Position numbers and translations under genes: made by a program. Positions 51,565 to 53,637 of a stretch of DNA of 64,000 nucleotides are shown one piece after another (position 1 is the first letter of the stretch; every line of letters begins with the position of its first letter). The notes beneath the pieces were generated by a model, which saw only the letters and a list, made by a program, of their open reading frames with translations, was not told where the DNA came from and did no database searches. The stretch is from an uncultured Gammaproteobacteria bacterium (GTDB lineage: Bacteria > Pseudomonadota > Gammaproteobacteria > DRLM01): assembly GCA_963729605.1 (NCBI GenBank), contig CAVSNY010000007.1:1216001-1280000 (forward strand), written 5' to 3'.

Positions 51565-53637
51565 ATGATCAAGCTTACCGTCAATGGAAACTCTGTGGAG
51601 TTGAATGAGGGCTCGACATTGCTCGATGCGGCCAGGGAGGCCGGCGTGTATATTCCCACGCTCTGTTATTATCCTCGACTGCCATCCCATGCCGTTTGTC
51701 GCATGTGTCTCGTGGATGTTGCAGGTGAAGCCCAGCCACAAGCCGCCTGTGTCACCAAGGCGAAAGACGGGGATGTTGTAGAGACGGACTCCAGTGATCT
51801 GCAGGAATTCCGTAAAGCAAATGCGCAATGGTTATTGGCACGCCACCCGAACGACTGCATACGATGTGAAGTGAACGGATCTTGCAAATTGCAGAATCTG
51901 GTTAGCGAGAACCAATGGGAGGACGGTTGGGAAAATGTTCCACTAGGGTCCGTAGAACATCCTGAGCATATATTGACTGACCACACGTCGCCCAGTATAT
52001 GGCGTGATCTGTCAAAATGCATTGAATGTGGCCTGTGTGTCGAAGCGTGCGGCGATTCCGGACAACAACAATACGTGATTGGATTTGCAGAGCGTGGCGC
52101 TGGCCGCCTGCCCGTCACCGTTTTCGATAGACCCCTGGTCGAGACTCGGTGTATTTCCTGCGGTCAATGCACGCTTGTGTGCCCGGTCGGCGCTTTGGTC
52201 GAGACGCCGCACTGGCACGATGTTCTTCATACCCTTGATGCACGTCGACGTATCACCGCCGTACAGGTTGCACCTGCCACGCGTATTGCCATTGGTGAAG
52301 AGTTCGGAATGAAACCCGGTACCGTGAGCACGGGTAGAATGATCAATGCCCTGAGACAGCTGGGTTTTGATTACGTGTTTGATACCAATTTCGGCGCCGA
52401 TTTGACGATCATGGAGGAAGGAACCGAGTTGCTCGCGCGTCTCAGAAACCAGAAAAATTTACCGCTTTTCACTTCATGCTGCCCAGGATGGATAAATTGG
52501 GTTGAGATCAACCGGCCGGATATTTTGCCGCACCTGAGCACGACAAAATCACCACAGCAAATGCATGGCGCACTCACCAAACGCGGCGCCTTTGCACGTT
52601 TGCTTGGTCCCGAGTTCGCAGAGGGCAAGGTGGAACCCTACGTGGTCAGCGTGATGCCCTGCACGGCCAAGAAAGATGAGGCGGCCCGGCCTGGTGTGTC
52701 AGATGATATAGACCATGTTCTTACCACACGTGAATTGGCCAGAATGATCAGGGCGCGCGGTATTGCGTTTAACGCGCTGCCTGAAGAAGGTGAATTCGAC
52801 AATCCGCTCGGCGAAAGTACAGGCGCGGGACAGATCTTCGGCGCATCGGGGGGTGTCATGGAAGCGATGGTGCGTACCGCCTCCCATTTCATCGGCGAGG
52901 AGGACTCGCTGCCGTTGGAATGGCATCAACTGCGCGGTGTCGGCGAGGGAGTGAAAACCGCCGAGATTCCCGGTATCGGCAAGGTCGCCGTATGCAATGG
53001 CATCGCCTCAGCACAACGTTTGCTGAAAACGGAATCATGGCGCGACGAATATGTCGCCATCGAGGTCATGGCCTGTGTGGGAGGTTGCCTGGGTGGTGGT
53101 GGCGAGCCCAAATCCATGGATGCACTCGTTCTCGAGAAACGCATGCAGGCCATATACAACATGGACAAACATGCGCCGCGACGACGCTCGTATGAAAACT
53201 CGGATGTTCAAAAATTGTATGCGACAGAATTGCAGGGACCGAATTCCGTTCACGCACAAGCCTTGCTCCACACCGCTTATGCCGCACGAAACTCCGAGCG
53301 ATTACTTTTAATGCGGTTTCTTGATTATGTCGACAGGCGAGACGGCAGGGGAGCGGCCGGCCTGTTACATCCGGACGCGTTGTGGTCGACGGCTTCGGCT
53401 TTCGGCGACATCCACGGCGCTTCGAATATCGAGGTGTTAATTAATACGCGCTTGCCACCGCGCAAGTATGGTCCGGGATATGTCCGTCATCGGATGGAAT
53501 CCAGCGCGGATATCGACGATCTCACTGTCGTGACGCCCATGGGTGAACGATGCGGGTTCAGTATGGAGGTAGACACCCTGCGCGAAGGAAACCAGTCGAG
53601 AATGGTAATTAGAAGCCTGGTGCGGAAAATGCTGTAA
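51565..53637 (+). CDS. hydA: group A [FeFe]-hydrogenase (2Fe-2S, His-ligated 4Fe-4S, 2x4Fe-4S, H-cluster, fused small subunit) with C-terminal SnoaL/NTF2-like extension
   Basis: CRMC; HPNDCIRC..C; CIECGLC..C and CISCGQC..CP; H-cluster motifs TSCCPGW, MPCTAKKDE, EVMACVGGCLGGGGEP; RRSYEN..LY..LLHTAY; about 115 extra C-terminal residues. Confidence 0.93.
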   Translation: MIKLTVNGNSVELNEGSTLLDAAREAGVYIPTLCYYPRLPSHAVCRMCLVDVAGEAQPQAACVTKAKDGDVVETDSSDLQEFRKANAQWLLARHPNDCIRCEVNGSCKLQNLVSENQWEDGWENVPLGSVEHPEHILTDHTSPSIWRDLSKCIECGLCVEACGDSGQQQYVIGFAERGAGRLPVTVFDRPLVETRCISCGQCTLVCPVGALVETPHWHDVLHTLDARRRITAVQVAPATRIAIGEEFGMKPGTVSTGRMINALRQLGFDYVFDTNFGADLTIMEEGTELLARLRNQKNLPLFTSCCPGWINWVEINRPDILPHLSTTKSPQQMHGALTKRGAFARLLGPEFAEGKVEPYVVSVMPCTAKKDEAARPGVSDDIDHVLTTRELARMIRARGIAFNALPEEGEFDNPLGESTGAGQIFGASGGVMEAMVRTASHFIGEEDSLPLEWHQLRGVGEGVKTAEIPGIGKVAVCNGIASAQRLLKTESWRDEYVAIEVMACVGGCLGGGGEPKSMDALVLEKRMQAIYNMDKHAPRRRSYENSDVQKLYATELQGPNSVHAQALLHTAYAARNSERLLLMRFLDYVDRRDGRGAAGLLHPDALWSTASAFGDIHGASNIEVLINTRLPPRKYGPGYVRHRMESSADIDDLTVVTPMGERCGFSMEVDTLREGNQSRMVIRSLVRKML

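Follow-up and report, generated by a model that had tools for sequence, protein, structure and literature searches.

The gene at positions 51565-53637 (+) of the 64,000-nt stretch of DNA analysed here (the window; positions 1,216,001-1,280,000, forward strand, of contig CAVSNY010000007.1 from assembly GCA_963729605.1 of an uncultured Gammaproteobacteria bacterium, GTDB DRLM01) encodes a 690-aa protein of the group A [FeFe]-hydrogenase family, which is cytoplasmic and consists of a single subunit. It begins with a chain as in CpI (Clostridium pasteurianum hydrogenase I) with one [2Fe-2S] and three [4Fe-4S] sites, followed by the H-domain and then by a SnoaL/NTF2-like domain. Proteins with this additional domain form a large, highly conserved and horizontally spread family of their own, moving as a solitary gene among oxygen-respiring Proteobacteria, and the maturases HydE, HydF and HydG did not exceed the cut-offs in any of the hosts examined. 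In a preliminary description of this DNA, a lack of hydEFG had been taken to imply either alternative maturation or a non-hydrogenase role; the maturases are indeed not found, and the evidence ends at exactly this either/or. Tentatively, a catalytically competent hydrogenase matured without HydEFG is preferred here, narrowly ahead of a hydrogenase scaffold repurposed for other chemistry.

Domain layout and conservation

The following features of the gene can be deduced, given with their position in the window and strand:

51565-53637 (+): whole gene of the HydA-SnoaL fusion, 690 aa, ATG start, stop codon included
51565-51792 (+): residues 1-76, [2Fe-2S] ferredoxin-like domain (Pfam Fer2_4, 1.2e-18), with C34, C45, C48 and C62 invariant
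51811-51909 (+): residues 83-115, His/Cys-ligated [4Fe-4S] site (Pfam NADH-G_4Fe-4S_3, 1.4e-10), with H94, C98, C101 and C107 invariant
51997-52206 (+): residues 145-214, two ferredoxin-type [4Fe-4S] sites (Pfam Fer4 and Fer4_7)
52255-53100 (+): residues 231-512, large-subunit part of the H-domain (Pfam Fe_hyd_lg_C, 1.1e-83)
52471-52491 (+): residues 303-309, L1 motif TSCCPGW, invariant save G308 (at least 90% conserved)
52654-52680 (+): residues 364-372, L2 motif MPCTAKKDE, all nine residues invariant (n = 47 sequences)
53062-53109 (+): residues 500-515, L3 motif EVMACVGGCLGGGGEP, with E514 where the solved HydAs printed have Q
53128-53289 (+): residues 522-575, small-subunit-like segment (Pfam Fe_hyd_SSU, 8.6e-16)
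53290-53634 (+): residues 576-690, SnoaL/NTF2-like domain, as assigned from the fold model, family-wide Pfam matches and the ratio of nonsynonymous to synonymous substitution rates (dN/dS)

Among the NCBIfam models, TIGR02512 ([FeFe] hydrogenase, group A) is passed with 436.7 bits at a cut-off of 405.95, and the best-scoring one is that of the NADH-dependent group A6 (A3 in HydDB), with 652.3 bits being below its cut-off of 765. The iron-sulfur (FeS) chain includes, at residues 83-115, the His/Cys [4Fe-4S] module held in common with NuoG and, at residues 145-214, the ligand sets C152/155/158/162 and C196/199/202/206 in invariant columns. All three H-cluster motifs are intact, and the four cluster cysteines as well as the adjacent relay cysteine are present. 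Pfam matches, motif reading and alignments thus bear out the preliminary claim of a complete cluster set and intact H-cluster motifs with E at the position of Q. This exchange, GGGEP versus GGGQP in the solved HydAs 8a6t and 7q4v (the two printed alignments), is found in 76 of 76 family open reading frames (ORFs) reaching the motif, and a 77th ends too early. As the Fer2_4 match begins at residue 1 and the first residues do not include an RR pair, there is no room for a twin-arginine (Tat) signal, in line with the absence noted before. Pfam matches of the protein do not include signalling or output domains (PAS, HTH, kinase). Modelling of the full-length protein with AlphaFold2 resulted in a predicted local distance difference test (pLDDT) value of 75, with the FeS region (residues 86-214) being poorly modelled.

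Conservation was analysed in 47 full-length members sharing 70-85% identity. All three regions of the protein are under purifying selection and the H-domain is the most constrained, with median dN/dS values (from pairs with dS below 2, corresponding to 327-371 of 1081 pairs) of 0.128 for the FeS region, 0.093 for the H-domain (residues 215-575) and 0.212 for the SnoaL-like domain. Every FeS ligand is invariant in the 47 sequences. In addition, 17 positions were chosen which we take to be the putative counterparts of the H-cluster ligands, the relay cysteine, the proton path, the second-sphere residues and the di-iron contacts of CpI. Sixteen of these (C305, C306, C366, C504, C508, K369, M364, M502, E285, E288, R292, S329, P330, Q331, A236 and P237) are invariant and S325 is found in 46 of the 47 sequences, at a background of 137 invariant among 361 H-domain columns. 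Compared to the two printed HydAs, the family shows its own, polar substitutions beside H-cluster ligands, namely E514 for Q, D371 for F, H334 for F and V505 for P. About 75 of the 80 loci have an uninterrupted frame of full length.

The C-terminal extension, residues 576-690, is a real, folded and conserved domain and not read-through. Its AlphaFold2 model, an alpha+beta cone, reaches a pLDDT of 89.3 and a predicted template-modelling score (pTM) of 0.84. A search with VIA-align gave 141 chains at Z≥8, the top ones being ketosteroid-isomerase-fold, SnoaL-like and NTF2 proteins (highest Z of 12.8 to 4kvh, at a root-mean-square deviation, rmsd, of 2.2 Å over 101 residues), and the best Foldseek matches are ActVI-ORFA and ketosteroid isomerases (E 2e-4, probability 1.00, TM 0.45-0.59). 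At E≤0.01, SnoaL_2 and SnoaL_4 of Pfam match 80 and 74, respectively, of 84 family members, with best E-values of 4.6e-9 and 1.5e-10; the copy encoded at 53290-53634 scores 17.2 bits with SnoaL_4, under the cut-off of 24. Nine residues are invariant in 84 aligned copies of the domain (R579, D590, R592, W607, T609, L630, H642, F665 and R687), and C663 is conserved in at least 90% of them. Hence, fold model, structural neighbours, family-wide Pfam matches and selection corroborate the C-terminal SnoaL/NTF2-like fusion proposed at the outset, and the counter-proposal made along with it, an unstructured or unconserved read-through, is contradicted by the confident model, the invariant residues and the dN/dS value. 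Look-alikes of the domain in the ESM Atlas are NTF2/SnoaL clusters with a score of 0.82, which is below the counting level and thus a lead only, agreeing with the fold search. A homodimer prediction for the domain returned a score of 0.00, which is no answer and evidence neither way.

When querying 1.84 billion representative proteins with the domain only, 41 matches were obtained, 18 of which were read. A hydrogenase small-subunit or H-domain segment lies ahead of the domain in 14 of them; two further ones look like chimeric reads, and the remaining two (128 and 133 aa) are without a hydrogenase part. As 14 of the 18 matches read are pieces of such hydrogenases, an established free-standing family of this domain is not seen. 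Six metagenomic hydrogenase fragments of the same architecture (P0137, P0143, P0149, P0156, P0158 and P0161) carry the extra domain at 37-47% identity, hinting at a wider branch that has been sampled poorly; P0158, used as query among near-length proteins, retrieved itself as the sole match. In P0139, a monooxygenase-like N-terminus is joined to the end of the domain, possibly representing a chimera.

Distribution, maturases and possible function

At least 120 clusters in the protein collection belong to the family, being about 690 aa long and 81-96% identical over the full length. They are designated '[FeFe] hydrogenase, group A' where names are given, and Gammaproteobacteria, Burkholderiaceae, Thiobacillus, Nitrosomonas, Gallionella, Acidithiobacillales and Thioalkalispiraceae are the named sources. 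Relatives are encoded in 591 stretches (contigs, one genome per species), which may include ordinary hydrogenases because one of the search patterns is the general L2 motif. The best 80 of these 591 stretches, on which locus counts, motif counts and neighbourhood scans are based, show 70-87% identity and nearly all span residues 1-690. The architecture, initially described as new, is thus a new one when attributed to the family and not a one-off, being present in at least 120 clusters and 80 species genomes under an existing group A label. Carriers belong to the Alpha-, Beta-, Gamma- and Zetaproteobacteria and the Campylobacterota, plus one Myxococcota bin. Isolates among them include Thiomicrorhabdus, Hydrogenovibrio halophilus, Thiomicrospira, Janthinobacterium, Duganella, Pseudoduganella, Paraburkholderia, Hyphomonas, Thioclava, Jannaschia, Rhodoferax, Caenimonas, Aquabacterium and Pleionea, and the bins include those of Mariprofundus, Sulfurimonadaceae and Polyangiaceae.

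The gene was not found in 40 relatives, 3 of which share the genus, 8 the family and 29 the class of the host; these show NuoG-like N-terminal matches only. Among 400 genomes drawn evenly from the class, the profile of the SnoaL-like domain matched the host alone, in agreement with the earlier statement that such enzymes are uncommon in Gammaproteobacteria. A quick gene tree mixes classes, with 9 label changes at a minimum of 4 and most forks weakly supported, which fits transfer between classes without proving it. Labels of metagenomes holding the gene (biofilter, wetland, sludge, mud) account for small shares and are leads only. In a run labelled as metagenomic RNA-Seq (X20), contigs cover the gene and its flanks at similar depth and no holder is listed as RNA; because of this similar depth the reads may be DNA and say nothing on expression.

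Across the 80 loci, clustering of ORFs did not reveal a neighbour family common to more than 7 loci and, within three genes on either side, none common to more than 5 of about 78, confirming the orphan state of the gene; what sharing there is represents synteny within a genus. Small ORFs within 600 bp on either side are not common to more than 3 of 75 loci. Partner genes of the HydB/HydC type are not found next to the hydrogenase gene and, extending what had been noted for the window, a match to Complex1_51K (the HydB/NuoF-type flavoprotein) is absent from the whole host assembly (3.48 Mb, 7 contigs, 94.5% complete). NuoD, NuoF and NuoG-like proteins likewise gave no match there, although ORFs of about 800 aa resembling NuoG occur in G001 and G002, two genomes of the same genus. 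Either the organism is without NDH-1, or its nuo operon falls into a gap of the assembly.

The lack of hydE, hydF and hydG near the gene, described before for the window, holds for the host assembly, in which HydG shows no match whatever, HydE no match and HydF only GTPase-domain matches of at most 92 bits at a cut-off of 325. The same applies throughout the family, for which a survey of homologs and maturases had been proposed: the fusion is retained, HydG exceeds the cut-off in 0 of 67 host genomes, without a match at E≤0.001 in 16 isolates and 50 further hosts, and both HydF and HydE exceed it in 0 of 17 hosts (own genome plus 16 isolates). For each of the three maturases, the cut-off is exceeded in two of the control genomes, which the output does not name; the controls bearing Fe_hyd_lg_C are likewise two in number, Bacteroides thetaiotaomicron and Thermotoga maritima. 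From these matching counts, the searches are functional as tests for the maturases. An ordinary hydrogenase whose HydEFG were missed through assembly gaps or strong divergence is the least credible of the explanations considered. It could draw on the incompleteness of the host genome and on the many hosts that are metagenome bins, but 16 isolates are among the genomes without HydG, the HydF matches in hosts are all confined to the GTPase domain (approximately positions 1-180 of the profile) and the controls are detected. Further searches of the host assembly gave no match for the [NiFe] hydrogenase large subunit, for HypD and HypF, and for the N-domain (POR_N) of pyruvate:ferredoxin oxidoreductase (PFOR), the latter being present in 6 of 17 hosts. 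The host genome encodes haem-copper oxidase subunit I.

If the tentatively favoured reading is correct, the protein would carry a working H-cluster-type site and interconvert H+ and H2, possibly as redox valve or H2 user in low-oxygen episodes. Electrons would arrive via the FeS chain from ferredoxin or flavodoxin, and the di-iron part would be built by a route independent of HydE, HydF and HydG. The SnoaL-like domain might be an integral accessory module that either has a pocket for a small molecule or covers the H-domain as a cap, and might perhaps let the enzyme work without helpers or near oxygen. Regulation, substrate delivery and protection, put forward for it in the preliminary description, are candidate roles. 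H2 handling is preferred because the catalytic pocket and the proton path are best kept and the relay cysteine is present. As far as can be judged from sequence, completeness of domains and motifs, invariance at 16 of the 17 positions aligned to H-cluster and proton path and the lowest dN/dS in the H-domain would all suit an active enzyme. Also in favour is the SnoaL-like domain, which is folded, conserved and, judging by 14 of the 18 matches read, found in this architecture only. A precedent is seen in intact archaeal [FeFe] hydrogenases without HydEFG, as described in passages of PMC11216029.

Several points weigh against this reading, first of all the maturase counts in the host genomes. 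As HydEFG, HypD and HypF were not found in the host genome, no known route to the Fe-CO/CN ligands is available there, and with PFOR in only 6 of 17 hosts and none in the own genome, the classical route from pyruvate via ferredoxin to H2 is mostly unavailable. The host encodes a haem-copper oxidase, the named isolates are mostly aerobes, and H-clusters are oxygen-sensitive. Part of the observed invariance may be due to the motifs also holding the [4Fe-4S] cluster, and the mapping onto CpI residues is a presumed one. Moreover, according to passages of PMC4744846, H2 consumption was not seen, under the conditions applied, in three Thiomicrospira species reported to have genes of this kind.

Almost as probable, and ranked next, is a repurposed hydrogenase scaffold in which ordinary, ISC/SUF-made FeS clusters or a simpler metal site occupy the H-pocket and a redox reaction not involving H2 is catalyzed. 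The SnoaL-like domain would then bind a small-molecule substrate or effector, comparable to NARF/Nar1, where the fold was kept and the H2 chemistry lost. In line with this, a single gene has been kept after transfer over at least six classes or phyla in the absence of a common neighbour, and a protein that works after transfer into so many backgrounds should need only housekeeping FeS assembly. The missing HydEFG, HypD and HypF, the rarity of PFOR, the oxygen respiration of the hosts and the three carriers without H2 uptake (again from the passages of PMC4744846) all suit this explanation as well. Judging from the fold neighbours, domains of the SnoaL type are characteristic of enzymes and binders of small molecules. 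In addition, the family has its own substitutions E514, D371, H334 and V505 beside the H-cluster ligands, and a loss of H2 function is documented for the NARF lineage in passages of PMC8924675. However, invariance at 16 of 17 positions aligned to proton path and di-iron contacts would be needless in a protein without that site, and the gene context yields no candidate substrate, partner or pathway.

A bolder variant of the favoured maturase-independent hydrogenase seems unlikely. Here, one self-sufficient polypeptide would have a working H2 site in oxygen-respiring hosts devoid of HydE, HydF, HydG or Hyp proteins, with the SnoaL-like domain together with E514, D371 and H334 replacing maturases or anoxia; the di-iron site might be assembled or stabilised, possibly with different ligands, or shielded from O2. 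Improbable is a sensor of H2, O2 or redox state similar to the putative sensory enzymes of groups C and D, in which the SnoaL-like domain would act in signalling or ligand binding. Such a role would be in keeping with a gene that stands alone and has acquired a non-redox domain, and with redox-interface habitats, which are deduced from metagenome labels of small share and are leads only. Against it, the protein is devoid of PAS, HTH, kinase or other output domains, a conserved regulator is not among the neighbours, the cysteine whose absence argues for sensory enzymes is present and invariant, and the full CpI-type electron-transfer chain has been kept under selection (dN/dS of 0.128).

A single gene is evidently useful enough for wide spread and strong selection. 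The question of [FeFe] hydrogenase function without HydEFG has so far been posed for uncultured archaea and anaerobic protists, and the SnoaL-fused family poses it in ordinary, culturable and genetically tractable aerobes. If active, the enzyme would indicate either that maturation can follow a new route or that its design is compatible with oxygen, which would be valuable for biological H2 production; it would also represent a source or sink of H2 so far unrecognised at oxic-anoxic interfaces. If inactive, metagenomic counts as 'group A [FeFe] hydrogenases' would overstate the fermentative H2 potential in oxic habitats, and the family would be a bacterial counterpart of NARF-type exaptation awaiting a function.

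Genomic context

In the window, the hydrogenase gene is located between two copies of a direct repeat derived from guaA:

36417-36695 (+): direct repeat copy 1, 279 nt, within the intact guaA gene (35206-36792)
54775-55053 (+): direct repeat copy 2, 279 nt, a guaA fragment 98% identical to copy 1 and 18,358 bp downstream

The interval between the copies also encodes a Na/Ca exchanger, a Kef-type exchanger, two universal-stress (Usp) proteins and Mrp antiporter subunits, and an integrase was not seen among the ORFs scanned. Three same-genus genomes match just the guaA piece of 44000-62000, and the G+C content is 54-56% around the hydrogenase gene versus 63-67% in the Mrp genes. This looks like an insertion of about 18.4 kb at guaA, including the hydrogenase and flanked by the duplicated guaA piece. 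A decaying relic, acquired by transfer, inactive for want of maturases and heading for loss, might be suspected from this island with gene fragments nearby and from the patchy distribution (0 of 40 relatives and 1 of 400 class genomes). It is very improbable, being already contradicted by the selection data, with dN/dS values of 0.09-0.21 in all three regions; in addition, about 75 of 80 loci retain an intact, full-length frame and identity across classes amounts to 70-87%.

Between the last Mrp gene and the hydrogenase, about 1.7 kb (49877-51564) of lower G+C content are without a convincing ORF, Rfam match or promoter-like site. A scan of 49800-55200 with Rfam (riboswitches and other known RNAs) gave 0 matches at E≤1, and a promoter scan near the hydrogenase gene gave 0 sites; terminator-like sites were uninformative. 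An FNR/CRP-type box with at most 2 mismatches was found in 21 of 75 upstream regions versus 8 of 74 coding controls. The corresponding claim was dropped, as intergenic base composition confounds this contrast. Between the hydrogenase and the guaA fragment, a 161-aa ORF (53958-54443, -) with a weak LVIVD-repeat match may be a gene remnant. Beyond the fragment, two tandem and mutually similar ORFs of 390 and 418 aa (55089-56261 and 56194-57450, -) have no Pfam match at E≤0.001, their C-terminal ends resembling, by eye, LuxR-type helix-turn-helix segments. They are followed by an AraC-family regulator at 57447-58487. Further downstream, an ORF at 62519-63799 (+) matches TraF_2 (1.8e-54; F-plasmid transfer TraF-like outer-membrane protein) and lies beside ORFs without Pfam matches.

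Comparison with known systems

In the main texts of the literature searched, nothing was found on SnoaL/NTF2-fused or aerobe-borne maturase-less [FeFe] hydrogenases apart from the passages of PMC4744846, and nothing on family-wide maturase absence or solitary mobility. A further candidate, PMC12542777, was rejected, the matching term being 'hydantoin' and not hydA. As reported in the passages of PMC4744846, an earlier survey (Greening et al.) placed proteins of Thiomicrospira relatives in group A1, their nearest annotated relatives being from Roseibacterium and Wenzhouxiangella at 68-70% identity, and biochemical data on these A1-filed proteins are stated there to be lacking. The survey filed them under A1 because they are single subunits without partner genes, like CpI.

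Among solved structures, the best matches are HydA subunits of HydABC, 8a6t chain A and 7q4v chain A, with 479 and 431 bits over residues 1-578, which share the same four accessory FeS sites, the H-domain and the small-subunit-like tail. Unlike these, the 690-aa protein has the SnoaL-like domain in addition, GGGEP in place of GGGQP, no HydB/HydC partner in the window and no maturases found. CpI (4xdc; M3-type A1) has the same domain order and cluster set and matches residues 4-573 with 376 bits. Accordingly, the designation 'CpI-like' given at first is appropriate for cluster set and domain order, while in sequence the protein is nearer to HydA of HydABC. Like CpI, it is a single subunit without partner genes (M3 order, A1-like), and the CpI chain stops where the SnoaL-like domain starts; solved structures matching residues 579-690 by sequence were not found. 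Hosts of CpI are strict anaerobes with HydEFG and PFOR, whereas hosts of the SnoaL-fused hydrogenase encode oxidases and are without HydEFG.

An extension at the same junction is seen in HydA of Thermotoga maritima (7p5h chain A, 645 aa), where residues 3-576 of the query align to 2-552 of the chain and about 90 residues follow, by analogy a precedent for domain accretion at this point. The T. maritima extension is a [2Fe-2S] thioredoxin-like domain inside the HydABC complex. The one described here, in contrast, is of the NTF2 type; only one of its cysteines is conserved, and a cluster motif is absent. With the SnoaL/ketosteroid-isomerase/NTF2 superfamily it shares the fold (Z 10-12.8, rmsd 2.2-3.4, about 100-113 residues), but identity to the solved members listed is 4-24% and the domain has its own set of invariant residues.

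Hydrogenases without HydEFG have been described in other lineages. Passages of PMC11216029 report that most archaeal [FeFe] hydrogenases lack these maturases, are intact and can be activated, with an alternative pathway being proposed, and passages of PMC4967309 report [FeFe] hydrogenase genes without HydEFG in Alphaproteobacteria of the Rhodospirillum rubrum type, the proposals for these being likewise a different pathway or a different role. These represent other lineages and architectures, a SnoaL-like domain is not described in the passages of either source, and the archaeal hosts are described as anaerobic. NARF/Nar1 of eukaryotes are hydrogenase homologues without HydEFG in which the H2 function is lost (PMC8924675, in part). 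Unlike these eukaryotic proteins, likened here by description, the 690-aa protein keeps the CpI-type N-terminal chain and the positions aligned to the proton path. It also differs from the sensory hydrogenases of groups C and D, for which, in passages of the same source, loss of the cysteine next to the cluster ligand serves as an argument for slow, sensory enzymes: a signalling domain is absent from the 690-aa protein, and the relay cysteine C305 is invariant.

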